From sequence record NC_054651.1: a DNA stretch of 46,667 nucleotides. One strand, 5' to 3'. Positions 10,668 to 44,714 of the stretch are shown here, piece by piece. A model generated the notes under the pieces. That model ran no database searches, was not told the origin of the DNA, and was given only the letters and a program-made list of their open reading frames with translations. Position 1 is the stretch's first letter. Every line of letters begins with the position of its first letter. The stretch comes from Escherichia phage C1. Made by a program: the position numbers and the translations under genes.

Positions 10668-10725
10668 TGATGTTGATTATATCATCTCAGTGGTGTTGAC
10701 ACCTGTGAGGTGGTGATGTAGATTC
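10668..10725. promoter_or_regulatory. divergent promoter module A: minus-strand extended -10 (TGATATAAT) and plus-strand TTGACA-17-TAGATT
   Basis: Plus strand GATTATATCA...GGTGTTGACA-N17-TAGATT; the reverse complement of the first part is TGATATAAT; near-copy of the module at 12774..12821. Confidence 0.5.
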
Positions 10726-10763
10726 AAGTCATCGAAACGAGTGATGAATAAATGAGGTGAGTT

Positions 10764-11057
10764 ATGAAAATTAAAATGTTGATTGCATCAGCGCTATTGG
10801 CTTCTTCCTTTGCTGTCAGTGCGACATCTGAGGTTTGCAAAAACATTGGAGAAATCGCCATGAACACTGCTGATGTTCGCGATAACGGTATCAGCAAGAA
10901 TCTTGCCGAGGTGGTAGTTAAAGGTTCCGCAAAAAACAACGAATCAGCAGAAATAATCGGCCTTGCTATCGTAGAAATGGTTTATGCACGCAAGGATATG
11001 ACCAAAGAGCAGTTGCGTGATGTGGCTATTGCTTTGTGCGAAAAGAATGGAATGTAA
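10764..11057 (+). CDS. secreted small protein (signal peptide), unknown function
   Basis: 97 aa; N-terminus MKIKMLIASALLASSFAVSA is a typical Sec signal peptide; first gene of plus-strand moron cassette. Confidence 0.5.
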   Translation: MKIKMLIASALLASSFAVSATSEVCKNIGEIAMNTADVRDNGISKNLAEVVVKGSAKNNESAEIIGLAIVEMVYARKDMTKEQLRDVAIALCEKNGM

Positions 11058-11089
11058 TATCAGCAAGTTGCTAAAAATTGAGGTGAGTT

Positions 11090-11284
11090 ATGGACGTTGT
11101 TATTTTGCTGTTTTTTGTTGGTTTGGTGATATTTGCGTACCTTCTGCCATCTTTTGTGGCGCTGCAGCGCAAGCACGTAAACACGACTGCAATCTGCGTA
11201 CTGAATATTCTTATTGGATGGAGTTTTATTGGATGGGTAGCAGCGCTTGTTTGGGCATTAGTTAAGAGCGACGATAAAAAATGA
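11090..11284 (+). CDS. superinfection immunity (Imm-like) small membrane protein
   Basis: 64 aa, two hydrophobic helices; block YLLPSFVALQRKHVNTTAICVLNILIGWSFIGWVAALVWAL matches the remembered pattern of the superinfection-immunity family (LPS.IA..R.H.N...N...GW..IGW..AL.WA). Confidence 0.55.
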   Translation: MDVVILLFFVGLVIFAYLLPSFVALQRKHVNTTAICVLNILIGWSFIGWVAALVWALVKSDDKK

Positions 11285-11424
11285 ACGAACAAACAAAAGC
11301 TGACCTGATTTTCTACACTGATCTGTATGTTGATGCAGGTTACGACTACGAAGAAGCGGAGCGAATGGCGAAAGATTTGCTTCGTGTGATTGGTGTGATT
11401 TTTGATGAGGATAAGGTGATATGA
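11281..11424 (+). CDS. hypothetical small protein
   Basis: 47 aa ORF (below track threshold) with ATG overlapping preceding stop; translationally coupled position. Confidence 0.3.
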   Translation: MNEQTKADLIFYTDLYVDAGYDYEEAERMAKDLLRVIGVIFDEDKVI

Positions 11425-11795
11425 AAAATTATGAAGATATGAGTGATTTTGAGATTAACTCAGCAGTGCATAATGCTCTAATGCAGGAGCCGTACAAAAT
11501 TGAATTTCTTGGCAATGACAGAATAAGATGGGTGAGAGGTTCAACTGACGTAACGACAGGAAAAGTAGGGTATGGCAAGCGCTCTCTTAAAGACTATTGC
11601 AATAATCCAGCTGATGCTGAACCTATTATTATTGAAAACAGAATTGGCACCATTCCAGCACCAGATAATGGATTGTGGAAAGCTGCGCATAGAAAGGTTG
11701 GCAATGATGATACGCCATACCATTTTACTCAAGATAAAAACCCGCTCCGCGCCGCTATGATTGTTTTCCTGAAAATGAATGAGGATAAATTATGA
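11421..11795 (+). CDS. hypothetical protein (NinX/DUF2591-like N-terminus)
   Basis: 124 aa; N-terminal MSDFEINSAVHNALMQ resembles DUF2591; start overlaps upstream stop. Confidence 0.45.
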   Translation: MKNYEDMSDFEINSAVHNALMQEPYKIEFLGNDRIRWVRGSTDVTTGKVGYGKRSLKDYCNNPADAEPIIIENRIGTIPAPDNGLWKAAHRKVGNDDTPYHFTQDKNPLRAAMIVFLKMNEDKL

Positions 11796-11992: not shown

Positions 11993-11994
11993 AA

Positions 11995-12022
11995 CAAAGC
12001 CCCTTTCGGGGCTTTTTTGTTT
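11995..12022. terminator. bidirectional rho-independent terminator
   Basis: AAAGCCCC-tttc-GGGGCTTT hairpin flanked by A-run and T-run; lies between convergent gene ends 11992 (+) and 12024 (-). Confidence 0.7.
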
Positions 12023-12023
12023 A

Positions 12024-12773: not shown

Positions 12774-12821
12774 GTGATTATATCACAGGTGTTGACAGTG
12801 ATTATTTTGTGGTGTAGATTG
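12774..12821. promoter_or_regulatory. divergent promoter module B: minus-strand extended -10 (TGTGATATAAT) for major tail gene and plus-strand TTGACA-17-TAGATT
   Basis: Plus strand TGATTATATCACAGGTGTTGACA-N17-TAGATT; near-copy of module A. Confidence 0.5.
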
Positions 12822-13262
12822 TATTTCAGATAGTTTTCGTGAGCGACTTTGCGGACTTTTTAGAAACTGACCACAAAGATAAATGCAAACGATGATGTTG
12901 TTCTGATGGCGGCGTAATAGCCTGTAAGTCAGCAAGGTCTTCCGATTCCTTGTAAACAAATTCGGCGCAGTGGCCCGCTGTGATTAATAATGGGCACACA
13001 ACAGGTAAGAGCATTGAGTCGATAATCGTGAAGAGTAGGCGCGCTTGGTTAGCCAGTGATCTTTCCGTTGTGGTAATGCCATCTTGATTATTTGGATAGG
13101 TTTGCATCCATTGTTATGCCAGTTTCAGTTAATCGCGAAACGCCACAACACTTAACATTCAGCATTAATTGAAAACAATTTTCCGTAATTATGTATAGGG
13201 GTATGCAGGGATTACGGAGCTGGATGTTAAGAAAGCACGCTGGCAATGCTTAAACCAGTAAT

Positions 13263-13291
13263 AAAGCCGCTTCATGCGGCTTTATTTATTT
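13263..13291. terminator. rho-independent terminator
   Basis: AAAGCCGC-ttcat-GCGGCTTT hairpin followed by TTTATTTATTT on plus strand; also immediately 3' of minus-strand gene 13286..13660. Confidence 0.6.
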
Positions 13292-14055: not shown

Positions 14056-14402
14056 TATGTCACCAGCGCAAAGTCAGGCGGCTCAGCACGATTGAACGTA
14101 TTGCCGTAATTAATCACATTCAGAATCTGGTTTGCACCAGCCGCCAGCGGGTCAGCTTCTGTCGCCGTGCCAATCATGATGTAATCACCTACCTTGGCGT
14201 CAGTGTATTCCGTCCAGAAGGTATTTTTCTGCACAATCTCATTACCTTTCGCATCAGTCGATACATCATCATTAAAGCCATAATCGCACATGATGCTCAC
14301 TGGCGCGCCAAAAGTCGGCTTGCCGTACTTGTCAGTGCCGCTTTTGTGCCAGATTGTGCATGGTTGCGTGTAGGAAAACCGAGCCAGTGAAGTCATTTGC
14401 AT
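14055..14402 (-). CDS. head-tail joining protein (head closure position)
   Basis: 115 aa; synteny. Confidence 0.4.
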   Translation of the reverse strand: MQMTSLARFSYTQPCTIWHKSGTDKYGKPTFGAPVSIMCDYGFNDDVSTDAKGNEIVQKNTFWTEYTDAKVGDYIMIGTATEADPLAAGANQILNVINYGNTFNRAEPPDFALVT

Positions 14403-14821
14403 TTACTCCCACGCACAACCGCAAACCACGGCTTGCCGCCGCCGTCAGGGTCTTCCACCAAATCGCCAGTGCATCCTGCTGTATCCAGTAGTTTCATCTG
14501 ATTGTACAGCGCCACCCACGGCTTACTGCCATACGAGAATGATTGTGATGCACCAGATGGTGCGCTCTGGCTGGTAACGTAGCGCCCGGCGGTATTTGCG
14601 CTAATCAGAATTGAAGCCCACAGCATGATCGCATTTTGTCGGCATTCATCATTTGGGTAGCTCAGCTCAAGGCATTCACTGATTGACGCCACAAGGCACA
14701 GAATGCCAGACGCATCCGTTGTGGTGATAGTCATCCCGCGCGACGCCATCTGACTGACCAGCTCTTCAGGTGTTGGTGCTGTCATTTCTCTTTGACTCCC
14801 GTACTTTCCACCACATCTCAA
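14393..14821 (-). CDS. head-tail connector/adaptor protein (putative)
   Basis: ORF-track ORF; likely true start at MTAPTPEE (about 14785); synteny. Confidence 0.4.
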   Translation of the reverse strand: MRCGGKYGSQREMTAPTPEELVSQMASRGMTITTTDASGILCLVASISECLELSYPNDECRQNAIMLWASILISANTAGRYVTSQSAPSGASQSFSYGSKPWVALYNQMKLLDTAGCTGDLVEDPDGGGKPWFAVVRGSKCK

Positions 14822-15050
14822 ACAGGTTCTTTATTACCAGCGACAGTGCACCGAGGATTGACGCCACTGCCGCCCACTCCGTCAGGCTGTGTGGAATCAT
14901 AGCCTCAAAATAAGACTGCGTGACAGGTGTTTGCTCTGCAACTTTCAGGCCGATGCCAGTACCAATAGAGGCATATCCAGCCTTGTCAATCACCTGTCCC
15001 GTCGTCCCGCTTATAACCTGCTCTGCGGCCTGCCTTAGTGTTTCGTTCAT
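14766..15050 (-). CDS. small protein with C-terminal transmembrane helix
   Basis: 94 aa; hydrophobic stretch WAAVASILGALSLVIKNLF then basic tail. Confidence 0.4.
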   Translation of the reverse strand: MNETLRQAAEQVISGTTGQVIDKAGYASIGTGIGLKVAEQTPVTQSYFEAMIPHSLTEWAAVASILGALSLVIKNLFEMWWKVRESKRNDSTNT

Positions 15051-15082
15051 TGCGAGTCTCGCTGATGATATGTTTCCAGCAC

Positions 15083-15523
15083 TTATAGATTTGAATCAGC
15101 GAAAAAACGATGGCGACCACGCCAAGAACAATGTCCAATTTCGCCGCCCCATTTAAAAGTGATGGAAAGGATGAACAGATGGATGCCGATAATAATAAAT
15201 GCGTACTGCGCATGAAGCGGCGTTTCTACAGGCGTGATAAATTCCCATACGAATGACTCTATCGCTACCAGCCATTCGTAAAGGCTCATCGTCAGCACGC
15301 AGAGCGCCATCTTTGTACTTTTGCGCAGCGCAATAGCTGGAAACAACCAGATCATAGACTGCGCAAGGTAATACAGATATTCGGCGGGAAATGAATCAGC
15401 AAGCACCCATCCAAGATACACAGACATCGCCATTGCCGGAATGAACACCAGAAACGCAACCATGCCCGTGCAGGCAAAACCCAGCACATACATGATCATG
15501 ATGGCAATGTCTGCGCCGAACAT
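15083..15523 (-). CDS. polytopic inner-membrane protein, unknown function
   Basis: 146 aa with about 4 hydrophobic helices. Confidence 0.45.
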   Translation of the reverse strand: MFGADIAIMIMYVLGFACTGMVAFLVFIPAMAMSVYLGWVLADSFPAEYLYYLAQSMIWLFPAIALRKSTKMALCVLTMSLYEWLVAIESFVWEFITPVETPLHAQYAFIIIGIHLFILSITFKWGGEIGHCSWRGRHRFFADSNL

Positions 15524-15525
15524 TA

Positions 15526-15642
15526 TTTCTTACCGCGCGATGGTGAGCGGGTGGAACCGTTTGGCTTCACTGCGCCAGCTTTGCCGCCAGCTTTGGTATT
15601 GCCAGTGGCGCGTGAGCGAGACGGCGAATTGGTTGAACCCAT
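15526..15642 (-). CDS. small basic Ser/Gly-rich protein
   Basis: 39 aa ORF below track threshold; strong SD (AGGAG) before ATG; stop overlaps next ATG. Confidence 0.3.
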
Positions 15643-15689
15643 GTTTAAATCTCCTGTTGTTTGATTAGCATGATTTTAGCATATTCCTG

Positions 15690-15718
15690 TTGACGTAGAT
15701 TAGTGTGGCGTTTATAGT
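15690..15718 (+). promoter_or_regulatory. sigma70-type promoter TTGACG-17-TATAGT for ParB/MTase/clamp cassette
   Basis: Hexamers with 17 bp spacer; contains TGACGTAGATT and a second TGACGTAGAAAC copy just downstream. Confidence 0.55.
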
Positions 15719-15741
15719 TAGTGACGTAGAAACAACAATAA

Positions 15742-15933
15742 ATGTTAGAGGTGATGGAAATGGAAGGTAAAACAGAAGTTGTGGTTGTTGATGTTTTTTA
15801 TCAAGCATCAGACGAAGGCATTCCAGCTCACTGGTGCTGCCAGTTTATTCGCGATGGATGGACTGGTTATGAATATTTTGATAACTCAGAAGATGCATAT
15901 AACTATGCTTACTCACATGGATTTCAAGGATAA
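15742..15933 (+). CDS. hypothetical small acidic protein
   Basis: 63 aa ORF, first gene after promoter; likely start at internal ATG near 15757. Confidence 0.4.
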   Translation: MLEVMEMEGKTEVVVVDVFYQASDEGIPAHWCCQFIRDGWTGYEYFDNSEDAYNYAYSHGFQG

Positions 15934-15936
15934 ACA

Positions 15937-16746
15937 ATGAAAACACTAAGCAAAATCTATTCAGACAAAGAAACGCGCAACGGTATCGCTGTCAATAAAA
16001 CCTATCTCGTGCCAGTTGAGCAAATCTATCTTGAGCCTGGATACAACATCCGCGAAGCCGATGAACAGCATGTGGAATATTTCGCGCAGTGCTGGGAATC
16101 AGGTCAGCCACTGCCAGCATTAACAGTTATTCCTGACGAGAAGGGAATCCGCATTCTTGATGGTCAACATCGCTACCTCGGCGCATTGCGTGCCATTGAG
16201 CGTGGCGCACCAATCGTTCGTATTGAGTGTAAGGATTTCACTGGCGATGAGGCGGACAAAATTGCCTTCATGGTGTCATCCAGTCAGGGGAAGCAACTTG
16301 ACCCGTTTGAGCGCGCAAAGGCTTACACACGACTGAAGGGTTTTGGCTGGACGAATGAAGAAATAGCCAAGAAGGTAGGTCGTTCAGTATCTGACGTGCA
16401 GATGCATCTGTCACTGGGTGATGTGCCTGCGGAAGTAAAAGCGCGAATCAGTGCCGGGCAAATCAGCTATGCAAATGCCGTAGCAGTAACTCGCGAGCAT
16501 GGCGATGATGCGGTAAAAGTTATCGACGAGGCAGTCGAAGAAGCTAAAGCACAAGGCAAAGACAAGGTCACAGCCAAAGTGCTGAAGTCGAAAAAGATTA
16601 AGCCAATAGACCGCCTGATTGAGTTATTGAAGCCAGCAGACCATGTGATTCTTCCTGCTGGTCATGTAGTGGCAGAGGATGAGGAGTTTATCCAGATTCC
16701 TGTTGCTGATATTCACGAGGTTATGGCAATTCTGGAGAAGATGTGA
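15937..16746 (+). CDS. ParB-like nuclease domain protein
   Basis: 269 aa; ParB/Srx N-terminal domain pattern including ILDGQHRYLGALRA; stop overlaps downstream start. Confidence 0.7.
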   Translation: MKTLSKIYSDKETRNGIAVNKTYLVPVEQIYLEPGYNIREADEQHVEYFAQCWESGQPLPALTVIPDEKGIRILDGQHRYLGALRAIERGAPIVRIECKDFTGDEADKIAFMVSSSQGKQLDPFERAKAYTRLKGFGWTNEEIAKKVGRSVSDVQMHLSLGDVPAEVKARISAGQISYANAVAVTREHGDDAVKVIDEAVEEAKAQGKDKVTAKVLKSKKIKPIDRLIELLKPADHVILPAGHVVAEDEEFIQIPVADIHEVMAILEKM

Positions 16747-18166: not shown

Positions 18167-18196
18167 AAAAAGCCCCGGAAGGGGCTTTTCTTTTAT
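18167..18196. terminator. bidirectional rho-independent terminator
   Basis: AGCCCC-ggaa-GGGGCT hairpin with A-run upstream and T-run downstream between convergent genes. Confidence 0.7.
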
Positions 18197-19056: not shown

Positions 19057-19082
19057 TAAAAAACCCGCATGATGCGGGTTTA
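19047..19082 (-). terminator. rho-independent terminator
   Basis: AACCCGCATGATGCGGGTT hairpin with T-run on minus strand. Confidence 0.65.
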
Positions 19083-19297: not shown

Positions 19298-19326
19298 ATA
19301 AAGGGGCTTTCGCCCCTTTTTTTTAT
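19298..19326. terminator. rho-independent terminator after capsid gene
   Basis: AAAGGGGC-tttc-GCCCCTTT hairpin followed by T8. Confidence 0.7.
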
Positions 19327-20396
19327 TACACCGGAGTTTGCGTGCCGTAGCCGTTGAATACTCTGGATTTGCCAGTGGCATCCTTGCGAATTTGTAGACC
19401 AAAAGCCGACCACACGAGGAAGTTAAAGTTATCGTGCGGGTTAGCACGGGCAGCCGCATAGGTGGAAACAGGCTGAGCAACACGCGGACGGATGTACATG
19501 TCGTTGCGAACATAGCCAACAAAATGGTTGCCGGTCAGCAGGAAGTTGGTGCCAATCTTGCCGATGCGACCGTTACCGAACTGCGTGATGTACTGCTCAA
19601 CCGTGCCGCCTTTGAAGCCTGCTGCATCAGAATACGGACGCATGAAGCTGCGACGCACTGCCGGGGAAACCCACAGAGTCACCTGCTCAAATACGTTCTG
19701 CGCATCCAGAATAGCCTGGAAATCCTGATTGAAGAAGGTCACGATTTCATCTGGCGTTGCAGTTTGCAGGTCGATATTCAGACCGCCGGAAGCATTCAGG
19801 TTAACCTGAATGGTGTTCGGGTGGTTGGTGATACCGTAACCAGTGTAAACGCCGTTCACGTTCAGAGTCTGGTCGCCAGTCAGCAGATACTGTGCCATAT
19901 CGGAACGCAGGTTAAAGGTAACGTTAGCCTGATCGTCCAGTAGAGGGTCGAAACCTTCAGACTGCATACCCAGCAGTTCGCGCCATTCGCGGCTGTAGCC
20001 AGTCTTGAAGATTGGAATCACATCGCCAGTGTAATCGTAGCGAGTTTTATCCAAATCTTCCGGCTCCTGACCAGACAGAGTGCGGACGACCTTGCCAGCA
20101 TCGGAAGCAATGCGGCTGATTGCCACGGTCTTACCAATGTTGATGTTTGCCGCGATACCCATCAGGTCAGCCATCATGTCCTGACCAGCTTCGTTGCGGA
20201 AAACGCGGGTGGTAACGTTATCCACGTCGCGCCAGTAATCTTTCGTTACCAGTGCGGTGGCGTTAACGCCGTATGTTTTCGCCAGCTCAGCTTCTGCGTT
20301 GCAGAATACCTTGCGGTCGATGGTCAGATGTTTCCACTGGTCAGCCACCACTGCGGAGTTGGCTACCAGGTCTTTGGTAAAAATAATCTTTTCCAT
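19326..20396 (-). CDS. major capsid protein (putative)
   Basis: 356 aa; position downstream of scaffold and decoration-like genes and followed by a strong terminator. Confidence 0.55.
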   Translation of the reverse strand: MEKIIFTKDLVANSAVVADQWKHLTIDRKVFCNAEAELAKTYGVNATALVTKDYWRDVDNVTTRVFRNEAGQDMMADLMGIAANINIGKTVAISRIASDAGKVVRTLSGQEPEDLDKTRYDYTGDVIPIFKTGYSREWRELLGMQSEGFDPLLDDQANVTFNLRSDMAQYLLTGDQTLNVNGVYTGYGITNHPNTIQVNLNASGGLNIDLQTATPDEIVTFFNQDFQAILDAQNVFEQVTLWVSPAVRRSFMRPYSDAAGFKGGTVEQYITQFGNGRIGKIGTNFLLTGNHFVGYVRNDMYIRPRVAQPVSTYAAARANPHDNFNFLVWSAFGLQIRKDATGKSRVFNGYGTQTPV

Positions 20397-20398: not shown

Positions 20399-22278
<1,880 letters not shown>

Positions 22279-22615
22279 GGTTAACTCTCCACGGTTAGTT
22301 TGTGGTCGAATTATAACACAGTGAGATATAGCACCATGAGGCGGTAGCCAGTGCAAATAATGGCGAATTGGTGAGTGCGTACAGCGTGAGAAAGTAAGTG
22401 ATAGGGATTATATTCATGGGCTACCTCCTTATTAAATGATAGCAGCCCATGCTGAACAAAAGATATACGGTGTTAGTCTGAAATCACATCATCCATAAAT
22501 GCGAGCGCGGCACCTGAAAGACAGAACAGAGCGCCATAGCAAATCATCTGGTACAGCGTATCAGCCTCAAATACCCTTGCGAATGCGTAGGCTGATAGTA
22601 TCCAAAGCAATGGAA

Positions 22616-22942
22616 TCATAATCCTGCCTCCTGCTTCGCCCGGTGAACGTATGACATGAACTTGCCAATCGGCATTTCCTTACGGATTTGCGCCAGAATT
22701 GCCCCGTGAATCATTCTTTCTTCGCCAAAATACAGCTTATCCAGTCGCGTTTTGATAAGTGCTCGCGTGCGCTTCATATGGTTGCGAGCCTTAAGTGCTT
22801 TCTCATGCCAGACGCGATCATTCTTCTTATCAGCATATTGCAGTTGACGCTCAACGGTTTCGATTTCGAAAGCCAGTTGCACGTCGTAATCTTCAAGCTG
22901 AATAATGTCTGCCTTCATGATGTCGTTTAATGGGATAATCAT
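22616..22942 (-). CDS. hypothetical protein
   Basis: 108 aa ORF; start overlaps upstream stop. Confidence 0.4.
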   Translation of the reverse strand: MIIPLNDIMKADIIQLEDYDVQLAFEIETVERQLQYADKKNDRVWHEKALKARNHMKRTRALIKTRLDKLYFGEERMIHGAILAQIRKEMPIGKFMSYVHRAKQEAGL

Positions 22943-23468: not shown

Positions 23469-23957
23469 TCATACTCTTGCTTCTTGCGTTTTGCTTTCCC
23501 CATGCTGACCTCTTACGTTGCGAAGCAGTGAATTGAACAGGTTGCTGACATTAACCTCCTGCTCACGCCATGAGTAACGCCATAGCTTCTTGTGGTGGTC
23601 ATAGCTTCGCGTCACGTCACCGTTATGAAACATAATGCGGATGCGGCTTTTCACGATGCGATAGTCAATGCCAGTGGCGGAGCTAATATCTTTCACTTCT
23701 GCGCCAGCGTTATCAAGCAGGTGACACTTAATCGCATCATCAATACCAGCGGAATCATCATGGATGAAATATTTATACTGCCACTTTCCACCGCGAATCA
23801 CCGACTTCTCCCGTCGAATGAAACCCAGCGCAAGCATCTCATGCAAACGATGCGTTGTGGTGCTTGAATGCTTGCCGCCGCAATGCTTCTCAATGTATGC
23901 GCGCGTTGCACCGGGGTGATTGATAATCACGCGCATGATTTGTGATTTATAGTCCAT
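23469..23957 (-). CDS. hypothetical protein, possible winged-helix DNA-binding
   Basis: ORF 23469..23990; likely start at MDYKSQIMRV. Confidence 0.35.
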   Translation of the reverse strand: MDYKSQIMRVIINHPGATRAYIEKHCGGKHSSTTTHRLHEMLALGFIRREKSVIRGGKWQYKYFIHDDSAGIDDAIKCHLLDNAGAEVKDISSATGIDYRIVKSRIRIMFHNGDVTRSYDHHKKLWRYSWREQEVNVSNLFNSLLRNVRGQHGESKTQEARV

Positions 23958-24195
23958 GATCGCGTTCCTCTGCTGCCTGATTGAAGTCATCGGCGGTGTA
24001 GAGGTGTCCGTTGCGAGTATTCCACTTCTTCATTGCCGTGGATGCGCAACAATACGAGTCAGTACGGCAAAAACAATTACCACACTCAACGTGCAACCCT
24101 TCACCGTCATCAATAACACTCACGTCATCACAGCAACAAAACGGACATCGTAATAGCTTCTCATTATTCATCATCGGCATATGTGGTGCGCTCAT
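23947..24195 (-). CDS. small Cys-rich (zinc-ribbon-like) protein
   Basis: 82 aa with CPFCCC...CGNCFC pattern. Confidence 0.4.
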   Translation of the reverse strand: MSAPHMPMMNNEKLLRCPFCCCDDVSVIDDGEGLHVECGNCFCRTDSYCCASTAMKKWNTRNGHLYTADDFNQAAEERDHGL

Positions 24196-24664: not shown

Positions 24665-24892
24665 TCAACCGTTACTGGTTGAACTATAAACCAACGCAGA
24701 TATAAGTTCGTCAGCCTTTTCACGACCTGCAACCTCAGCTTCAAGCGCCAGTGAGCACATGGCAGTTTCCACAAACTTAATGGTATCCTCGCGAACGTTA
24801 AGGATTTCCATAACCTCGCGAACTTCCTTCTGGTATCTCGCTGCTATTTCTTTGTATCGCATTTCCACATCACCTTTTTCGTTGTGGTACAA
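24665..24892 (-). CDS. hypothetical protein
   Basis: 75 aa ORF (non-ATG first codon in track); likely ATG start about 24862 after AAGGTG. Confidence 0.35.
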   Translation of the reverse strand: MYHNEKGDVEMRYKEIAARYQKEVREVMEILNVREDTIKFVETAMCSLALEAEVAGREKADELISALVYSSTSNG

Positions 24893-24962
24893 TCTACGTC
24901 AATAAGTATTGACTAAATGATGTAGATTGGTCAACAATAATTTTCGAAAAGGAGTAGTAAAT

Positions 24963-27639: not shown

Positions 27640-27700
27640 TAATTCTATCACAATGACTATTGACGTAGATTGAGTGGTGGTGCATAGTATCTACATCAAA
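27640..27700. promoter_or_regulatory. divergent promoter region: minus-strand extended -10 (TGTGATAGAAT) for lysis operon; plus-strand TTGACG-17-CATAGT; inverted GTAGAT repeats
   Basis: Read from sequence; TTGACGTAGAT and ATCTACATCAA form an 11 bp inverted repeat about 18 bp apart. Confidence 0.5.
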
Positions 27701-31373: not shown

Positions 31374-31400
31374 AATCCCATCACGTTGGATGGGATTATA
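31374..31400 (-). terminator. rho-independent terminator
   Basis: ATCCCATC-cacgt-GATGGGAT hairpin with T-run on minus strand. Confidence 0.5.
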
Positions 31401-31422
31401 GCATGACTGCCTAGCGCAAAAG

Positions 31423-32762: not shown

Positions 32763-32958
32763 GATTAATCCACCATGCGGCAATGGCTGAAATAATCCAC
32801 AATCCGATAACAAGCCTGAAAACCTGCCAGTTTAGAATGTCATCAATACTTGGAGCTTCCCATCTAATCAACCAGATAAACGGGAAAGCAATCGCTAGCG
32901 CAATGGTGTACTTAATACCAATAAACAGAAAATCTCTTACAAAATCTCTCATAATCAC
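32749..32958 (-). CDS. small two-TM membrane protein
   Basis: 69 aa, two hydrophobic helices. Confidence 0.4.
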   Translation of the reverse strand: MIMRDFVRDFLFIGIKYTIALAIAFPFIWLIRWEAPSIDDILNWQVFRLVIGLWIISAIAAWWINHVQK

Positions 32959-33161
32959 CCTCTCAAAAAATCATTCTTGCAGCAGATACCCTTGTACCCG
33001 CGCTTCTCTTGTAGGTTAACGAAGACATCATCCAGAACGCGCAGCAGGAAATCCTCGTCGATGTCATACCGACGACAAATCACCTCATCAGGCACACCAG
33101 CCCGCGCCAGTGAATAAACCTGTTCTTTTTCCTCCTGTGTGAATCCTGCATAGCTGCGCAT
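32955..33161 (-). CDS. hypothetical protein
   Basis: 68 aa; GGAGAT SD before ATG. Confidence 0.4.
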   Translation of the reverse strand: MRSYAGFTQEEKEQVYSLARAGVPDEVICRRYDIDEDFLLRVLDDVFVNLQEKRGYKGICCKNDFLRG

Positions 33162-33236
33162 AGTGATATCTCCGGTAAGCCTGATGTAGATATACTATGC
33201 GCTCGGTGTAGATTGGTCAAGTGTGGTGATGCAGAT

Positions 33237-35218: not shown

Positions 35219-35299
35219 AGATAAAACCTATCAATATTCCGCTATTTTTCCGTTATTCGATATTGTAACAGATTCTACACCATGACGTTAATGGCAAAA

Positions 35300-37811: not shown

Positions 37812-38323
37812 TTATTGCACCTCGTAAGAGTTAGTGATTGCCTTAATGCGGCGACGATACCATTGCATGATGTGTTCGTTATGCCAGTTGCTCATTTTGT
37901 TACCCCTTATAACCTGATTTAGAAACTGCCACTGAGATAATGATGAATGCCACGATAATCAGACTGGCGATAAGTTCGAATGTTGCTCCTGTCATTTACT
38001 TAACCCATACGCTGAGATTAAAGCCTGCATTGCCGCGTTCCAGAATGCTTCCGCAGGAATGCTATTGTTTGCGCGGTTAACTGCAATGCGTGCCATAGCT
38101 TGTGCATCTTCAAATTCTTCACGGTCTTTGATTTTCATTATGCGTACCTGTTATATGAAAGTTTTTTACATGCGTAATATTGTTTTTCTGCATAAGCAAA
38201 GGTCTTTCCAGTCTTCATCATCGCATCAATGAATTTGTGCGCGTCACCCTTTGACTCGCAATACAGAGCTATTGCGTATTTGGTAGGTTTCATCTCTTCA
38301 CCCTCGTTTGTTCCGATGAGTTC

Positions 38324-38352
38324 AATCTACATCAACGACGATTCTACGTCAA
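38324..38352 (-). promoter_or_regulatory. sigma70-type promoter (TTGACG-17-TAGATT) for leftward operon
   Basis: Read on minus strand; two copies of the GTAGAWT motif. Confidence 0.5.
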
Positions 38353-38680
38353 CAGGAATGCGTTAAAAACGTGCTCGTGGGGTAAATTTTTGCTCGTGGG
38401 GTAGGTCGTGGGGAAGGGGGCATGCCCCACTGGAAACCCTTGTGCCATGCGGCTTTTAACATGTTTGGGGAAGTGGGGCAGATTTCATACCCATCCCCTT
38501 ATAAATATATTCAAATAATCCATTTGTTAATATTATGTTAATTACTACCTATAATATGAATAATAATATTACCCATTAACCCAAATAATAATAATTTTAT
38601 TATATTACATATACTTAGAGGAGAGCTTCGTGGGGAAGGTGATGTTCCCCACGGCTGCCCCACGTTACCCACGTTAGTCG
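38350..38680. repeat. origin-like region: CGTGGGG iterons in both orientations flanking a ~120 bp AT-rich core, plus GGGGCATGCCCC palindrome
   Basis: Three direct CTCGTGGGG copies at about 38354, 38383, 38396; palindrome about 38405; AT-rich 38490..38620; further CGTGGGG/CCCCACG copies at about 38628, 38647, 38658. Confidence 0.55.
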
Positions 38681-38749
38681 TATTTGATGTTGCATGATTC
38701 AATAGTTATGATATGATTCAATCATAATTTGTTACTGGTGGAGGATTTT

Positions 38750-38968
38750 GTGAAACTTGACAAATACGGCAAAAAGAATGCAGCTCTTTCTGGATTATCG
38801 GTGGTTTCAGTAGGGGAGACTGTGATGATTGACTCGAAGAGATTTGGGGGCATTGCAAGCCTGAGGAACGCATTAAACTATTTTATGCGCAGGAATGAAG
38901 GCATGAAATTCTCAACAAAGGTTGGATACCCTGACAAAGACATGGTTTACGTAAAAAGGATTTCATGA
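38750..38968 (+). CDS. hypothetical small protein, first gene right of origin-like region
   Basis: GTG after GGAGGA SD inside track ORF 38729..38968. Confidence 0.35.
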   Translation: MKLDKYGKKNAALSGLSVVSVGETVMIDSKRFGGIASLRNALNYFMRRNEGMKFSTKVGYPDKDMVYVKRIS

Positions 38969-40521
38969 TGATCACAGCGCAAGACATCTTCAACGAAGCA
39001 AGGGAATTAAAAGTATCTCCTGCTCGCGTCGCCTTCCATCATGGCATGACGCCAAGCTCAAACATGTGGCTTGACATTAAGGAAGGCAAGGAGCGTGATG
39101 TAACGTACTCAGAAACAGAACTGACCAGTGAGCACCGGACTGATTTACTGTCTCGTTATGCAATCGCTGCAGCTCGTGCTGTTCAGTTCCCAATAAATAC
39201 ATCGTTCATGCATTTACTTGGGTGCGTTGCCAGCGCAATGACGAGAAACTTTAGCGTTGAGTATTACCATTCAGAGCTTCCAGTTTCTCTTTACGTGGTT
39301 ACTTCGCAGCCTCCATCAGCAGGGAAAACCGCTATCAACTCAATGCATATGAATCCGGTGAAGATTGAATACGACAACCTTTCCAAAAAGATGGAAAAGC
39401 AAATCATAAAAATAAATCTTCGCATCGAAGAGTTGATGAAGGCATACAAAGAGGCCAGCAATCAGAATGCAAAGGCACTAATCGGAGATGATATTGCTCG
39501 CGAAAAGGAGAAGCTGGAGGAGCTTTATACGATCACATATCCACTGACGGACGCAACGCCGGAGGCTGTTCAGCATCAGGCAATCCATGAAGGTGGTTTT
39601 TTTAATCTGATAAGTGACGAGGCAAGCGTTCTTAACACATGTCTTGGCCTCTCTTACGGAAAGGAAGGTGGAAAGGCAAACGCCGAAGTCATCCTGAAGG
39701 GCTGGGATGGCGGATTTATTGGTTCTGCTCGTGTTGGTCGTGGCGTTTCATCTGGTTATGTGCTTGGAAACATAAGTGTGATTGCTCAGGATGAAAGTAT
39801 TGATGCCATTCTTGCCGCTGGCGACAGGGGGAACGGGCTTTCTGAACGTTTCCTCATGTTGCGAGAGCAATCAATGCTTGGCTATCGCGAACACTGGGAC
39901 ATGGTTAATGATTGCCCTGTAAGCAAGCCAATGCCAGACAGCTTGAGGTCGGAATATGCAAGATTTATACATAATGTTGTGTCAGCAGAAAAAACAAAAC
40001 TGACGCTTCACAATGACTCAGCAAGAATGATCGGCCTGTTACGAAATCAGTGGGAGAAAAACTTCCTTCCCGGCGGTAAGTGGGACCACGTTCTTCTTCG
40101 TGGCGCGATGGGTAAAGCTGATAAGCAAATAATCCGTCTGGCAGCAATATTTCACGCTGCTGAAAACTGGTGCGATGGAGGAAAGCGTTCAAAGATTATC
40201 GGTGAAAATGAGATTAGTCGCGCCATCAGTGTTTATGACGCACTGACAAAAACATTCACTGATGCTGTTGAATCAAATGGGTATGCTGGTGAGCGTTCTG
40301 AATTTGATGTTGTTGCCGAAAAGCTACGCTCTGCCGCTCAGAAAGGAAAAACAAACGTAACGGTGAAGTGGCTTTATGATTCACTTAAAAACGTGCGACC
40401 ATTCAAAGGGATACCTAAAATTTATGACCGACTCAGATCAAGCGTATTGCCATCACTTGAAGAGGATGGTTACTGCGTTTTTATTGGTAATACTGTCCAC
40501 ATTAATCCGAGGTTGAAATGA
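38965..40521 (+). CDS. large hypothetical protein, putative replication-associated (DUF3987-like?)
   Basis: 518 aa; degenerate P-loop-like SQPPSAGKT; adjacent to origin-like region; function not resolved. Confidence 0.4.
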   Translation: MMITAQDIFNEARELKVSPARVAFHHGMTPSSNMWLDIKEGKERDVTYSETELTSEHRTDLLSRYAIAAARAVQFPINTSFMHLLGCVASAMTRNFSVEYYHSELPVSLYVVTSQPPSAGKTAINSMHMNPVKIEYDNLSKKMEKQIIKINLRIEELMKAYKEASNQNAKALIGDDIAREKEKLEELYTITYPLTDATPEAVQHQAIHEGGFFNLISDEASVLNTCLGLSYGKEGGKANAEVILKGWDGGFIGSARVGRGVSSGYVLGNISVIAQDESIDAILAAGDRGNGLSERFLMLREQSMLGYREHWDMVNDCPVSKPMPDSLRSEYARFIHNVVSAEKTKLTLHNDSARMIGLLRNQWEKNFLPGGKWDHVLLRGAMGKADKQIIRLAAIFHAAENWCDGGKRSKIIGENEISRAISVYDALTKTFTDAVESNGYAGERSEFDVVAEKLRSAAQKGKTNVTVKWLYDSLKNVRPFKGIPKIYDRLRSSVLPSLEEDGYCVFIGNTVHINPRLK

Positions 40522-40709
40522 GAACAATATCAGGCGAACTTTGCCGCTCAGAAGGTTCATGGCATTTCAGACCGTATGGTTATTCGACGTGGTTTTTCTG
40601 GAGTGGTATTAACAAAGTATGGATTCGATCTAATTACCACGTGCTTGATGATTACTGGCACAGATTTTGTATTGGTTATGTTGATATTTCAAAATTGATG
40701 ATTAAATGA
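40518..40709 (+). CDS. hypothetical small Trp-rich protein
   Basis: 63 aa ORF. Confidence 0.3.
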   Translation: MRTISGELCRSEGSWHFRPYGYSTWFFWSGINKVWIRSNYHVLDDYWHRFCIGYVDISKLMIK

Positions 40710-41026: not shown

Positions 41027-41052
41027 AAAACCCTCCATATGGAGGGTTTATT
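41027..41052. terminator. bidirectional rho-independent terminator
   Basis: AAACCCTCC-atat-GGAGGGTTT hairpin, T-run; between convergent gene ends. Confidence 0.7.
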
Positions 41053-42006
41053 TTATCTTCTAACTGACATTTTCTCTATCAACTCGCCAGCGTCATAAAT
41101 TTTTCTCCTGATTCTCTTTGCCATCCTGATAGTGTCAGCATCATCAGGAAGCATCACCGGAAGTCCTGCGTTTTCCGCAGCGCAAAGTTCGTTAAATTTA
41201 TAGTTAACTATGCAACGCAATATCGCCTTCATCTCATCGCTAACAGAACGCACCACTTCCCACATGTTTTCCGGCGACCAGCAGCACCAGACATGAGCTC
41301 CAGTGAAGTAATGGCACTTCCACGCGTCGGCATAATCAGATACCAGGTAAATGAACTTTCCGTTATCTTCTCCGATTGGGCTTATCGCCCCGCGCGTGAG
41401 CTTTCCGTTGATAGCTGAGTCTTTGTTGTATCCAGCACGGAAAAACGTTCTGAATGAATCACCATCCATGCCAATGAACGCCACGTTACACGGCTTCATT
41501 GTGTCAGCGCGTATCATCTCAACCGCAATAAGCTCTCCAGATTTAGCTCTGACGACGTTAACGTCGCAACCAATACCATTTATCAACGTCCACTCATTCA
41601 TCGCGACACGCGTCGTTTTAGCCATGATTGCGGCAACTTCCTGCTCGGTGATGAAGTCGTCATTATGATTTATCTTCGGTAACTCCTTCCTGATTGCTTC
41701 CAGTTTTTCACGCGGGTGCATATTCAGGAATCCACCAAGTGCCTCAAGTGCTTCGGGAAAGCTCATGCCAGAGAGTTTCATCAGCCAGGTGATTCCGCTG
41801 CCGTTTCCACACTGGTTACAGATGGCGCCGCCGTCACCTTTGTAGTCCAGGTTATCATCGAATCGAAATCTGTCGCGACCGCCGCAACTTGGGCATGGCT
41901 GGTGCTTACCATTGAAAACTCTGCTATTCACACTGACGATAGACATGATGGCGGCCTGCCAGTTCCCAAGCATTTTTGGCTCAATGTCTTTCCAGTCGTA
42001 TCTCAT
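41053..42006 (-). CDS. DNA primase (zinc-ribbon + primase core)
   Basis: Track ORF 41053..42117; likely start MRYDWKD; zinc-ribbon CPSCGGRDRFRFDD...CNQCGNGSG typical of phage primases. Confidence 0.65.
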   Translation of the reverse strand: MRYDWKDIEPKMLGNWQAAIMSIVSVNSRVFNGKHQPCPSCGGRDRFRFDDNLDYKGDGGAICNQCGNGSGITWLMKLSGMSFPEALEALGGFLNMHPREKLEAIRKELPKINHNDDFITEQEVAAIMAKTTRVAMNEWTLINGIGCDVNVVRAKSGELIAVEMIRADTMKPCNVAFIGMDGDSFRTFFRAGYNKDSAINGKLTRGAISPIGEDNGKFIYLVSDYADAWKCHYFTGAHVWCCWSPENMWEVVRSVSDEMKAILRCIVNYKFNELCAAENAGLPVMLPDDADTIRMAKRIRRKIYDAGELIEKMSVRR

Positions 42007-42008
42007 AA

Positions 42009-42060
42009 ATTGACCCTTGATTGTTGGTGTAGATTGAGTATAAGCTAACTGACGTAGAAA
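42009..42060 (+). promoter_or_regulatory. promoter region for rightward replication/recombination operon with GTGTAGATTG and TGACGTAGAAAC motifs
   Basis: TTGATT-16-TATAAG candidate; same motif pair as at 15690..15735. Confidence 0.45.
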
Positions 42061-42081
42061 CATCAACAAAAGGATATAGCA

Positions 42082-42345
42082 GTGTTCCTTGATAGCATTT
42101 TTAAGAGGATTTTTCATGGCAAGCCAATCCCTGTTGCCTTCGGATACCCGCCACGAAGCAACACATGGTTAACCATATACAGAAGACAGAGAACTGGAGA
42201 ATGGATTTTTGAGTGGGATGATTTGTTTGCCGATGAGAGGCCAGAAGATTATCTATGGAATCTTAGTTATATGTATTTTTATAACGGAATAGATGATGAA
42301 ACAAAGAAACAAGCAATTGAACACCTTGGCGCGAGGATTTTGTGA
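42082..42345 (+). CDS. hypothetical protein
   Basis: 87 aa ORF, GTG start after AAGGAT. Confidence 0.35.
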   Translation: MFLDSIFKRIFHGKPIPVAFGYPPRSNTWLTIYRRQRTGEWIFEWDDLFADERPEDYLWNLSYMYFYNGIDDETKKQAIEHLGARIL

Positions 42346-44291
42346 TGCATAAAATCGACGCAATGATTGCGGAACTTGACATAGATAAATTGCGGTCAGT
42401 TGTTCATACAGGGGAAATTGAGCCACGACCATATCAGTGGCTGGTTTATGAAAAGACGGCTGAAGTTATCCGCAAGTTTGGCAAAGACCCGAAACCAAGT
42501 TTTGTGACTGCATCGGTAGGTGCGGGAAAGACCATTATGATTGCCATGATTGCGCGACGCTTTCAGGATATGGGGTGGGAAGGTCTTGTTATTGCCAGGC
42601 AGGGGGAAATTATTGAGCAGGATGCGGAAGAGCTGTGGAATCTGAGTGTTAAAAACTCACTTTTCAGCGCGTCTCTTGGCAGAAAATCAACGGCATACCC
42701 GCTTATTGCTGGTACTGAGGGAACAATAATAAATGGCCTTTTCGATAAGAAGGACGAGTCAGGTAATGTTCTTTCTAAAGGTGCGCTTTCCGATTTTTGC
42801 CCTCGCTATATCCTTATTGACGAATGCCACCAGATGAACTGGGAGGACGTGGTAAGCGAAAGTCCTGAAACGCAATATGGCGTAATAATGACTGAGCTTA
42901 ACCGCAGATGTAAAGCTAAATACGGACATGATGTCATTGTTATTGGATACACAGGTAGCCCGTTTCGTGGCACCGACTCGATTAAGGGTGCTTACTGGAA
43001 ACATGAAATAGTAAACATTGACACTAAATATCTTGTTGATATTGGGTTTCTTGTGCCTACGATTTTTGGCCTGCATGACATTGATGATTTGCATTACGAC
43101 CTGTCAGCATTTGAGGCGTCAGGAAGCGATGGAACGCAGGACTTCACTGCCGAGCAACTCAAGCAGATGCAAAAAGAAATCCTTGAGCAAGGGACACTCA
43201 CGCAGAAAATCATGCTCAAGGTTATGGAGCTGACAAAAAACAGAAATGGCGTATTGATCACATGCGCTGGCAAGAAGCACTGTCAGGAGGCGGCAAAATA
43301 TTTACCTGAAGGAAGTTATGCGATCGTAACTGAAGATATGGGTATGAAAGCCAGACGCAAGGCATTAAAGGATGCATACACTGGCAAGATTAAATATGTT
43401 TTCCAGATTGGTTGCTTGACGACAGGCGTCAATATCCCACTCTGGGATACAAGCGTCATATTACGAAAAATAATGTCACTCACTCTTCTTGTGCAGCTGC
43501 TTGGTCGCGGGATGCGCCTGCTGAAGAAAGAGCAAATTGATGCAGGGTATCATAAAGAGGACCATCTGGTTCTTGACTTCTCTGGCACGATGTTTGAGCT
43601 TGGTCAGCTATATGCAGACCCAATTCTGGAAGAAGCCGAAGCGCAACGTTCAAAACGCAGTGGTGAACAGGTTCCGTGTCCTAAGTGCGGAACAATGAAC
43701 AGCCCATATGCGCGTCGCTGCATTGGCAAAGATGCATTGTCGCCAGATGGTAGATGCGAGGAGTTTTTCAGTTATATTCGTTGCGGTTTCGATAAGCACG
43801 GCATCCGTATTTTTGATGATGGTTGCGGTACTAAAAACGACCCAACGGCGCGTTATTGCCGACATTGCGATCACGTTTTGCGCGACCCGAATGCGGCACT
43901 TAATGAGCGTGCGTATACCGATAATGAGTGGGCTGATGTTATGGATTTCAAAGTCCAGTTAACGAAGGATGGAGAAGGTATTTTGTATCGCTACTGGATT
44001 AATCGTTGTGATGGGAAAGAGGGATGGGCTAACGAAGTTTTCTACCCCTATGGCGGCGCAACTCACATGAAAAACATGTTTAAGGCAAAAGCGGTCTTTC
44101 CTCACCTTGATGATAAGTCAATGGCGGGTAAAATCCTGAAGTGCCAGAACGCCAAGCAGTTCATGATGTATGCGGGATTGATTAAAGCGCCAAAACGCAT
44201 CACACATCGTATTAACGATAAAGGTCGTGACATAATCCACAGAAAAGATTTTGCAGGAGAGAATAGTGAAAAAGCGATTCAAGCAGCATGA
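42342..44291 (+). CDS. superfamily-2 DNA helicase (DExH box) with C-terminal zinc-ribbon region
   Basis: 649 aa; Walker A ASVGAGKT, DECH box (LIDECHQ), motif VI-like QLLGRGMR, C-terminal CPKC...C...C cluster. Confidence 0.8.
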   Translation: MMHKIDAMIAELDIDKLRSVVHTGEIEPRPYQWLVYEKTAEVIRKFGKDPKPSFVTASVGAGKTIMIAMIARRFQDMGWEGLVIARQGEIIEQDAEELWNLSVKNSLFSASLGRKSTAYPLIAGTEGTIINGLFDKKDESGNVLSKGALSDFCPRYILIDECHQMNWEDVVSESPETQYGVIMTELNRRCKAKYGHDVIVIGYTGSPFRGTDSIKGAYWKHEIVNIDTKYLVDIGFLVPTIFGLHDIDDLHYDLSAFEASGSDGTQDFTAEQLKQMQKEILEQGTLTQKIMLKVMELTKNRNGVLITCAGKKHCQEAAKYLPEGSYAIVTEDMGMKARRKALKDAYTGKIKYVFQIGCLTTGVNIPLWDTSVILRKIMSLTLLVQLLGRGMRLLKKEQIDAGYHKEDHLVLDFSGTMFELGQLYADPILEEAEAQRSKRSGEQVPCPKCGTMNSPYARRCIGKDALSPDGRCEEFFSYIRCGFDKHGIRIFDDGCGTKNDPTARYCRHCDHVLRDPNAALNERAYTDNEWADVMDFKVQLTKDGEGILYRYWINRCDGKEGWANEVFYPYGGATHMKNMFKAKAVFPHLDDKSMAGKILKCQNAKQFMMYAGLIKAPKRITHRINDKGRDIIHRKDFAGENSEKAIQAA

Positions 44292-44706
44292 ACTAAGTGA
44301 TAATGTTTTTGTGTTTGATGATGGCTACCGTGGCAAGTGCCCGCTTGAGGATTCCGACCTGATAGCGTTCAAGTGGTGGATGGATTACCAGTTTCCTGAT
44401 GTGCTGTGGTTCCATCCGTCTCAGGAGACCAAAAGCAACTCAGTGCAGCATCTGGCATCGCGCGCAAGGAAAGGTGTAAGGTCAGGGGTGTCTGATGTGA
44501 TAATCCTGACGCCTGGTGTGAGGTGGTATAAAGCGACGATAGAGTTGAAGCGGCATGATTCAACGCTTAGCAAATGGCAACCTGGACAGATACCGTTTCT
44601 CAACGATAGCGCCAGCGCTGGTGCATTCTCTGCGGTGGCGTGTGGACTCGACCAGATAAAGATTGCAGTGTTGACGTATTTTGGCTTGCCTTTTGATGTG
44701 GGTTGA
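44266..44706 (+). CDS. VRR-NUC-like PD-(D/E)XK nuclease
   Basis: Track ORF 44251..44706; GTG after AGGAG; blocks GVSDVIILTPG and ATIELKR fit D...E-x-K nuclease core. Confidence 0.5.
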   Translation: MKKRFKQHELSDNVFVFDDGYRGKCPLEDSDLIAFKWWMDYQFPDVLWFHPSQETKSNSVQHLASRARKGVRSGVSDVIILTPGVRWYKATIELKRHDSTLSKWQPGQIPFLNDSASAGAFSAVACGLDQIKIAVLTYFGLPFDVG

Positions 44707-44714
44707 TGTAGATT
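44686..44714 (+). promoter_or_regulatory. sigma70-type promoter TTGCCT-17-TAGATT
   Basis: Contains TGATGTAGATTC motif; upstream of exonuclease gene. Confidence 0.4.

Follow-up and report, generated by a model that had tools for sequence, protein, structure and literature searches.

The genome of Escherichia phage C1 (NC_054651.1), 46,667 nucleotides (nt) long and taken here in full as the window of analysis, raises the question of why one short sequence with a GTAGATT core should recur at about ten of its operon boundaries. A preliminary description of this DNA took the motif for an operator of a phage-encoded regulator or for a phage-specific promoter element serving temporal control. We find that the motif belongs to a longer box, which is a real, conserved and statistically overwhelming cis-element. 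On the sequence evidence we tentatively propose that a factor encoded by the phage recognizes this box as its operator and would thereby control the early promoter set, functionally like the repressor/stoperator system of phage L5, a reading to which we assign slightly less than an even chance of being correct.

A conserved box in non-coding DNA

The gene map was carried over, as 78 genes, from the record of Escherichia phage S192 (ON239132, Deseoctovirus), relative to which the window is reverse-complemented, rotated and different at 34 positions; annotated intergenic DNA comprises 4,791 base pairs (bp), or 10.3% of the genome. GTAGATT occurs 11 times in the window compared to 4.28 expected, a count reached in none of 100 shuffled sequences, and the more specific pattern GRYGTAGAW occurs 17 times compared to 1.79 expected, the highest count in any shuffle being 5. 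The comparison with shuffled sequence suggested in the preliminary description therefore bears out the recurrence of the motif, and each of the positions listed there has a copy within a few bases. By the raw annotation 12 of the 17 GRYGTAGAW copies are intergenic (p=5e-9); the number rises to 16 of 17 (p=2.5e-15) when the start of the primase gene is moved to 42006 and two overlaps of 1-2 nt with the ends of coding sequences are discounted. The annotated primase start (42063) is probably misplaced, as the proteins of relatives begin with MRYDWKD, which corresponds to 42006 and gives a gene at 41053-42006 on the minus strand. The earlier statement that the motif was not noticed inside genes thus holds for nearly all copies, but not for one full copy at 21289-21297, where the conservation is that of the coding sequence, nor for one bare GTAGATT at 28245-28251, which is also coding. 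In a k-mer test blind to the motif, TGTAGAT ranked first and GTAGATT third among the tested 7-mers for intergenic enrichment.

The consensus was built on 47 non-redundant sites in the non-coding DNA of six genomes. In 45 of the 47 a T precedes GRYGTAGAW, which extends the box beyond the core recognized initially; its final position is never C or G, and the base that follows is seldom T. The full box is T-G-R-Y-G-T-A-G-A-W-W(-V), asymmetric and about 11-13 bp long. It can be described as a -35-like TTGAYG fused with a -10-like TAGATT or, alternatively, as two imperfect tandem TWGAYK hexamers. The box is absent from the literature that we searched by motif, by genera and by names of related phages. 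The 16 strong copies lie in promoter regions at 10 loci and are accompanied by two degenerate ones (3211-3223 and 33226-33238); the copies, with two promoters that they flank, are as follows.

10714..10724, plus strand: box TGATGTAGATT as the -10 (TAGATT 10719-10724), with TTGACA at 10696-10701 and a 17-bp spacer; serves the plus-strand cassette from 10764
12810..12820, plus strand: box TGGTGTAGATT as the -10, with TTGACA at 12792-12797; precedes a non-coding leader of ~430 nt
15690..15701, plus strand: box TTGACGTAGATT as the -35 of the ParB-like operon promoter, with the -10 TATAGT at 15713-15718
15722..15732, plus strand: box TGACGTAGAAA, without the -7 T, at about +1 of the ParB-like operon promoter and at the start of a 33-nt leader
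24891..24901, minus strand: box TGACGTAGATT, 28 nt 5' of the ATG at 24862 of the minus-strand early operon; overlaps the plus-strand extended -10 TGGTACAAT (24885-24893)
24918..24928, plus strand: box TGATGTAGATT within the spacers of two conserved crossing promoters, TTGACT-N17/18 (plus) and TTGACC-N18-AATACT (minus)
27660..27671, plus strand: box TTGACGTAGATT as the -35, with the -10 CATAGT at 27683-27688
27688..27698, minus strand: box TGATGTAGATA, inverted relative to the plus-strand promoter and lying over its -10/+1; same orientation as the lysis operon
33182..33192, plus strand: box TGATGTAGATA in inverted orientation, spanning -7 to +5 of the minus-strand promoter of the gene for a protein of 68 amino acids (aa)
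33204..33214, plus strand: box CGGTGTAGATT, inverted, adjoining the -35 of the same promoter; no plus-strand gene downstream
33220-33192, minus strand: promoter of the 68-aa gene, TTGACC 33220-33215, N17, TAGTAT 33197-33192
35272..35282, minus strand: box TGGTGTAGAAT, directly 5' of the extended -10 TGTTACAAT (35270-35262) of the small-terminase operon
38324..38334, minus strand: box TGATGTAGATT as the -10 of the leftward early operon (ATG 38293), in TTGACG-N17-TAGATT at 38352-38324
38341..38352, minus strand: box TTGACGTAGAAT as the -35 of the same promoter, in tandem with the 38324 copy at a 17-bp offset
42025..42035, plus strand: box TGGTGTAGATT, 5' of the helicase/recombination operon; read in the inverse sense, it falls at +1 of the primase promoter
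42050..42060, plus strand: box TGACGTAGAAA, 21 nt ahead of the GTG at 42082, of the +1 type just after the -10; its inverted form adjoins the -35 of the primase promoter
42066-42037, minus strand: primase promoter, TTGATG 42066-42061, N18, TATACT 42042-42037
44704..44714, plus strand: box TGATGTAGATT as the -10, located in a 37-bp gap of the replication operon and preceded by a weaker -35, TTGCCT, at 44686-44691; either an internal promoter or a stoperator-like site
3211..3223, plus strand: degenerate box TTGATGTATATTG in inverted orientation; shares bases with the -10/+1 of the tail-fibre extended -10 promoter (3228-3220)

We compared the window with Sf11, swi2, SB28 (Macdonaldcampvirus), Akira, the Klebsiella phages KP591P1 and ZC2, and pYD38-A (Roufvirus). 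GRYGTAGAW is enriched to a like degree in all seven, with 15 copies in Sf11, 18 in swi2, 17 in SB28, 19 in Akira, 14 in KP591P1, 15 in ZC2 (1.7 expected) and 13 in pYD38-A; this includes the Klebsiella/Roufvirus clade, between which and the E. coli/Salmonella clade the coat protein is just 78-79% identical. The box is also retained in records labelled as Vibrio and Aeromonas phages. The unrelated coliphage ECO1230-10 (Jilinvirus) has 2 copies, which is the chance level, and shows no enrichment.

At single loci the box is kept while its surroundings change. In the alignment of the ParB-operon promoter from five genomes of both clades, TGTTGACGTAGATT is invariant, the next ~10 nt of the spacer vary in both sequence and length, and 3' of them TATAG is kept and TGACGTAGAAACAACAATAAATGTTAGAGGTGA is again invariant. 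The 33-nt leader of this operon (15733-15765, GACGTAGAAACAACAATAAATGTTAGAGGTGA) is identical in the five genomes, and the coding sequence around it is less conserved. In the divergent region at 24.9 kb (five genomes) TGAYGTAGA is invariant in the spacers of the crossing promoters and the flanks vary; in Sf11 and swi2 the 24918 copy reads TAGAAA and therefore lacks the -7 T needed by a -10. Between 10714 and its counterpart at 42191 in KP591P1, and likewise between 12810 and 40568, TGAYG/TGGTG and TAGATT are kept and the remaining spacer is replaced. The second copy at 27.7 kb occupies the same place in both clades, its orientation being inverted in the E. coli/Salmonella phages but direct in the Klebsiella clade, and the tandem design of 38324/38341 recurs at 40738/40755 in Sf11 and at 20876/20859 in KP591P1. 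The inverted copies around the -10 of the 68-aa gene are present in eight of eight genomes, with no co-oriented gene in S192 and SB28. The flanks of the box promoters are mutually unrelated, which excludes common descent of the whole promoters.

Box promoters and extended -10 promoters

The box occupies several defined places relative to the promoter hexamers. At 10696-10724 and 12792-12820 (TTGACA) and at 38352-38324 on the minus strand (TTGACG), TGRYG-TAGATT provides the -10 exactly 17 bp after the -35, in agreement with the preliminary description, which had also recognized placements just after the -35 and in the spacer and the paired direct or inverted copies that we see in the promoter geometry. 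At 15690-15718, 27660-27688 and 38352 the box itself is the -35 (TTGACG-TAGAWT) and is followed at 17 bp by TATAGT, CATAGT or TAGATT. Copies in spacers or in inverted orientation are those at 24918, at 33182/33204 and, relative to the primase promoter, at 42025/42050. An inverted copy shares bases with a -10 (TAnAAT|CTACRTCA) at 24885, 33192-33197 and 27685, in the degenerate copy at 3220-3228, and at 20861 in KP591P1. The gene-proximal copy ends 21-34 nt ahead of the start codon, and 14 of the 16 copies are co-oriented with the downstream gene, the exceptions being 33182 and 33204.

The -35/N17+/-1/-10 arrangement of sigma-70 promoters is found at seven places (10696-10724, 12792-12820, 15690-15718, 27660-27688, 38352-38324, 33220-33192 and 42066-42037), the chance background for a -35 match of at least 5/6 being 1.7%. 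This geometry shows, as far as sequence alone can, that the host polymerase uses the box promoters. The copies at 15722, 24891, 24918, 27688, 35272, 42025 and 42050, taken as hexamers, do not have it, and the box is not an extended -10 either, for it carries TG at -17/-16 and G at -13 instead of TG at -15/-14. All native non-coding promoters of the form TTGAC-N17-TAnnnT have at least one box. The sole exception is TTGACG-N17-TATAAT at 195-223 on the plus strand, which belongs to the endonuclease VII gene (250-843) and has no box; no counterpart of this gene was found by tblastn in Sf11, swi2 and KP591P1. With its box-less consensus promoter and its absence from the relatives compared, endonuclease VII looks like a recent insertion that brought a foreign promoter.

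The pattern TGNTANAAT (TGnTAnAAT type) defines a different set of sites. It occurs 11 times in the genome, ten of these in non-coding DNA (p=1.3e-9), as listed here.

10676..10684, minus strand: extended -10 TGATATAAT, without a -35, of the tape-measure block
3220-3228, minus strand: extended -10 of the tail fibre
5799-5807, minus strand: extended -10 of the 828-aa tail protein
12777-12785, minus strand: extended -10 of the major tail protein
15673-15681, minus strand: extended -10 of the head-tail connector block
22310-22318, minus strand: extended -10 of the head genes
27642-27650, minus strand: extended -10 of the lysis operon
31395-31403, minus strand: extended -10 of the portal
35262-35270, minus strand: extended -10 of the small terminase
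24885-24893, plus strand: extended -10 overlapped by the box at 24891..24901

The best -35 matches of the nine late sites are no better than background, and their hexamer varies (TATAAT, TACAAT, TAGAAT, TAAAAT), whereas the TAGATT of the box keeps its G and A invariant. The class is also enriched in KP591P1 (17 compared to 7.4 expected). Since these extended -10 elements without a -35 sit directly 5' of late operons, the predicted promoters of the phage are of two classes: box-bearing and -35-dependent (early, replication and accessory genes), and -35-independent with an extended -10 (late genes), "early" and "late" being assigned here by gene content. Promoters of the two classes stand back to back at five loci (10.7, 12.8, 15.7, 24.9 and 27.7 kb); at the fourth of these the minus-strand box overlaps the extended -10, and at the last the reverse complement of the box at 27660..27671 precedes the lysis-operon extended -10 (27650-27642) by 9 nt. 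Three late promoters (5807, 22318 and 31403) have no box nearby. The idea of temporal control put forward in the preliminary description gains support from this separate class before all late operons, which that description did not include.

Readings of the box and its possible binding protein

In the reading we favour, the box TGRYGTAGAWW would be a cis-regulatory site common to the sigma-70 -35/-10 promoters of the phage, which would constitute an early/middle set serving the replication genes, the small accessory cassettes and the tRNA/leader transcript. A sequence-specific phage protein made early would occupy the ~16 sites and, since a segment of the box is at once a promoter hexamer, any bound factor would sit on the core promoter; the early promoters would then be turned down by occlusion, and the late structural and lysis operons would be read from the separate extended -10 promoters that need no -35. 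Two operons, the ParB-like and the helicase operon, have an extra copy at the start site. The argument for a site bound by a factor rests on the bases that exceed the needs of sigma-70 (T-17, G-16, G-13, the invariant G and A of TAGATT, and TAGATT at -29 to -24), on copies without the -7 T, on copies that are unable to be hexamers (TAGAAA at +1, the spacer copies and the inverted pair at the 68-aa gene), and on the restriction of the box to this phage group. Of the two possibilities left by the preliminary description, a box bound by a factor is thus favoured by the invariant TAGATT beside the -35, the missing -7 T, the flipped copy, and the foreign promoter and coliphage that lack the box, although the two annotated DNA-binding proteins considered below each appear dispensable for retention of the box.

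Several facts weigh against the operator, some from the orientation of the copies and others from the candidate binding proteins. The co-orientation of 14 of the 16 copies with a gene, together with the fact that nearly all "inverted" copies are direct for the unit on the opposite strand, would be accounted for equally well by a promoter element with a direction, which RNA polymerase would read with the help of a phage factor (through sigma appropriation, a small subunit resembling sigma or its region 4, or an adaptor of the MotA kind). On this view every copy would be a start signal with a direction, used once the host enzyme has been modified, and the overlapping sigma-70 hexamers would give immediate-early expression; the 21-34 nt between the nearest box ends and the start codons agree with such a role. 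Exceptions to this orientation argument are the copies at 33182/33204, which flank the 68-aa -10 in all eight genomes and serve no gene in S192 and SB28. In addition, the -10-type sites have a canonical TTGACA at a spacing of precisely 17 bp, which speaks for unmodified sigma-70, at 14711 in KP591P1 (where the box is the -35 only) the gene distance is fixed by the downstream TATAGT and not by the box, and scans of 38 window proteins gave no match to the sigma, MotA or AsiA families. We regard a directional element of this kind, the chief rival of the operator, as possible but doubtful. It is unlikely that the box is a mere family-specific sigma-70 consensus that selection for promoter strength has maintained or promoter duplication has spread, no further factor being involved. 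Seven textbook -35/N17/-10 promoters do come at the top of a generic sigma-70 scan, but TAGATT is invariant despite differing from TATAAT at two positions, in a genome that also has a near-perfect TGnTATAAT, and the TAGAAA and TAGATA copies have no T at the essential -7 position. Sigma-70 makes no contacts at -17, -16, -13 and -29 to -24, the very positions at which the box has conserved bases. The unrelated flanks speak against duplication, and the box is missing from the unrelated coliphage and from the foreign promoter in the window.

Two further explanations we consider very improbable. The phage could exploit the site of a host (enterobacterial) DNA-binding protein, as the same box is found in phages of E. 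coli, Salmonella, Shigella and Klebsiella whatever their own DNA-binding genes; against this, it is kept in the records labelled as Vibrio and Aeromonas phages, and we know of no E. coli regulator or alternative sigma factor (IHF, FNR, MetJ, NarL, sigma-E, -H, -F, -N) whose consensus it fits. The box could also mark cassette boundaries, promoting modular exchange or travelling with mobile genes, its regulatory role being secondary, and the relative-specific cassettes (Sf11 gp69, HNH and homing endonucleases, an anti-repressor) do each bring box promoters; here the objections are that 11-12 bp is too short for homologous recombination, that the position of the box relative to the promoter hexamers is precise and conserved, and that the endonuclease VII insertion came without one.

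For an operator bound by a phage protein, three gene products of the window were considered as candidates.

15937..16746, plus strand: ParB/KorB-family protein of 269 aa (Pfam HTH_ParB and KorB, and PDB searches), 81% identical across clades
23469..23957, minus strand: winged-helix (MarR-like) protein of 162 aa, annotated start 23990
32955..33161, minus strand: 68-aa protein, a predicted three-helix helix-turn-helix (HTH) of the sigma-region-4/LuxR type

The ParB-like protein is probably not an obligatory binder: SB28 has a mere 44-aa remnant of it (region 14400-15420) and retains 17 boxes, and in the Jilinvirus ECO1230-10, which encodes a ParB-like protein of 43% identity, the box is not enriched. 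No conserved parS-like palindrome was found across the clades. Two perfect palindromes lie inside the coat and head-protein genes, of 18 bp at 19794-19811 (ATTCAGGTTAACCTGAAT) and of 16 bp at 21118-21133 (GTTGACAGCTGTCAAC); they are kept in Sf11 and swi2 and absent from the Klebsiella clade. The cross-clade alignment suggests two tandem winged helices in the second candidate, with marginal matches to Pfam MarR_2 (E=0.003) and PDB profiles (E=0.04-0.1); BLASTP detected no internal repeat, and the AlphaFold model is too poor for use (pLDDT 59). This protein is probably not obligatory either, for Akira has a truncated remnant of 54 aa (31129-31293) and retains 19 boxes, and the gene is deleted in a viable mutant. 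Genome minimisation of one such phage has been carried out experimentally and yielded, among others, the mutant seszw_290S (PMC9825161). This viable, genome-reduced phage lacks the winged-helix, 60-aa, 64-aa and 57-aa genes. SB28, Akira and seszw_290S each keep 15-19 boxes despite the lost candidate-regulator genes and, as natural or engineered knockouts, constitute ready-made experimental material; by this comparison the ParB-like and winged-helix proteins each appear dispensable for retention of the box, which argues against an operator bound by either.

Four small non-structural proteins, of 47 (11281-11424), 56 (24987-25157), 68 and 108 aa (22616-22942), are encoded in all ten genomes examined. 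Pfam and PHROG scans assign the small early proteins to domains of unknown function (DUFs) or families of unknown function alone, and Sf11 gp6 (Cro/CI-like) was rejected as the binder, having no homolog in the window or in other relatives. The 68-aa protein is universal in 204 database genomes and is the sole HTH-like candidate in all relatives. It is net acidic, and acidic or hydrophobic residues stand at the positions which we take to be the DNA contacts of sigma-70 region 4, so that it may bind protein rather than DNA. We therefore put it forward, as a weak candidate that is improbable in itself, as the best available binder of the box or factor directed at RNA polymerase.

The operator and the 68-aa protein can be joined in a single, fairly unlikely scenario, in which the hybrid TTGAYG+TAGATT box would run the early-to-late switch by means of a free-standing sigma-region-4-like protein. 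The latter would either compete with sigma-70 for the box or displace sigma region 4 from the polymerase, silencing the -35-dependent early promoters and sparing the extended -10 late ones. Such a switch, if true, would parallel AsiA or the L5 repressor in function while being built on a different fold.

The window contains several other features of note. The likely replication origin is at 38294-38737, upstream of the DUF3987 primase/helicase-like gene (38965-40521), and contains all six CGTGGGG copies of the genome, three direct (38376, 38395, 38407) and an inverted group at 38629-38664, flanking a very AT-rich stretch (~38480-38620). The ~430 nt 3' of the 12792-12820 promoter (12821-13265) have no annotated open reading frame (ORF) and end at a bidirectional terminator at ~13262-13285. 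Identity over the first ~240 nt is 78-81% in both clades, and in relatives the leader precedes tRNA-Ser, -Arg or -Met genes (Sf11, KP591P1, swi2 and Akira have tRNAs), which are deleted here. Rfam (at the gathering threshold) and ARAGORN found no RNA gene in the whole window, hence the plus-strand promoter at 12792 drives no recognizable RNA gene; the leader may represent a conserved non-coding RNA or have a part in tRNA processing. Nearly all cassettes end in GC-rich hairpins with A- and T-run flanks (AAAGCCCC...GGGGCTTT type), terminator-like on both strands in the region scanned, which account for the remaining k-mers enriched between genes.

873-892, 11996-12015, 18168-18189, 19061-19081, 19300-19319, 26025-26043, 29009-29029 and 41028-41049: GC-rich hairpins

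With regard to gene models, the ATG at 24862 is probably the true start of the first gene of the 24.9-kb operon (24665-24862, minus strand) and the annotated TTG at 24892 is probably wrong. A basic 39-aa ORF (15523-15642, minus strand) is absent from the S192 annotation and annotated in swi2 and Akira. Also missing from the S192 annotation are a Lar-like 82-aa ORF (23947-24195, minus strand) and two 63-aa ORFs on the plus strand that are kept in relatives (27717-27908 and 40518-40709).

These phages, comprising eleven Salmonella/E. coli/Shigella genera and the Roufvirus-like Klebsiella phages, are isolated in quantity for biocontrol and therapy, and the literature that we searched contains no description of their transcriptional programme. 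The regulatory map presented here, with ~16 box-bearing early and ~10 extended -10 late promoters, delimits the transcription units of the phage and leaves few small core proteins among which the regulator is to be sought. It also accounts for the insertion of accessory cassettes in antisense orientation to the structural operons, every cassette being equipped with a box promoter and a bidirectional terminator. Should the box prove to be an operator, it would offer a compact handle for switching the whole early regulon, useful in phage engineering, and would extend the design of many asymmetric operators beyond temperate myco- and P1-type phages.

Comparison with known regulatory systems

The presence of a ParB/KorB-family protein, encoded in an operon with two boxes and an invariant leader of its own, recalls the KorA/KorB system of RK2 and ParB-parS; their sites are palindromic, however, whereas the box is asymmetric, and the co-occurrence of gene and site fails in SB28, which has only the gene remnant and 17 boxes. 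Phage phi29 p4 and lambda Cro act at few palindromic or bent sites in one or two control regions. They share with the putative system described here an early protein that would bind at divergent early/late regions, of which there are five back-to-back late/box loci in this genome, and turn down the early promoters as late ones lacking a -35 become active, and differ from it in that ~16 asymmetric sites are found here and no homolog was detected. The T4 MotA/AsiA middle promoters and the phiEco32 gp36 promoters use phage-specific boxes that replace or supplement the sigma-70 hexamers, and AsiA spares extended -10 promoters, which is echoed by the two promoter classes of this phage. Nonetheless, the MotA box replaces the -35 near -30, whereas the box described here keeps a TTGACG -35 and occurs also at -10 and +1. 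Similarly, phiEco32 gp36 combines a single -10-like element, lacking a -35, with a full sigma factor, unlike the -35 at 17 bp and the single 68-aa protein resembling sigma domain 4 found here.

Scattered asymmetric sites are a feature of two temperate systems. The C1 repressor of P1, a temperate phage, binds asymmetric 17-bp operators dispersed over many promoters, single or paired and in either orientation; the scattered asymmetric site is common to both phages, the operator sequence is unrelated to the box, and no C1 homolog is present among the scanned proteins. The gp71-type repressor of L5 (Cluster A) recognizes an asymmetric 13-mer present in more than 20 copies per genome, in promoters and short intergenic gaps, with an orientation that follows transcription and proposed binding as a monomer (PMC9283540). 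The box resembles it in being asymmetric, of 11-13 bp, present in 16 copies at 10 loci with 14 of the 16 co-oriented, overlapping -35, -10 and +1, and found also in a 37-bp gap within an operon. The L5 site itself contains a -35-like TGTCAA. The differences lie in the sequence and the host, and in the apparently virulent character of the phages studied here: neither an integrase nor an immunity repressor is annotated, and general Pfam and PHROG scans of 38 proteins, in which gp71 was not compared directly, revealed neither. As none of the family-defining proteins was seen among the scanned proteins, and the site sequences of the known systems are not those of the box, we do not count it as a member of any of them; the closest functional parallel nevertheless appears to be the gp71 system of L5, which it may well work like.

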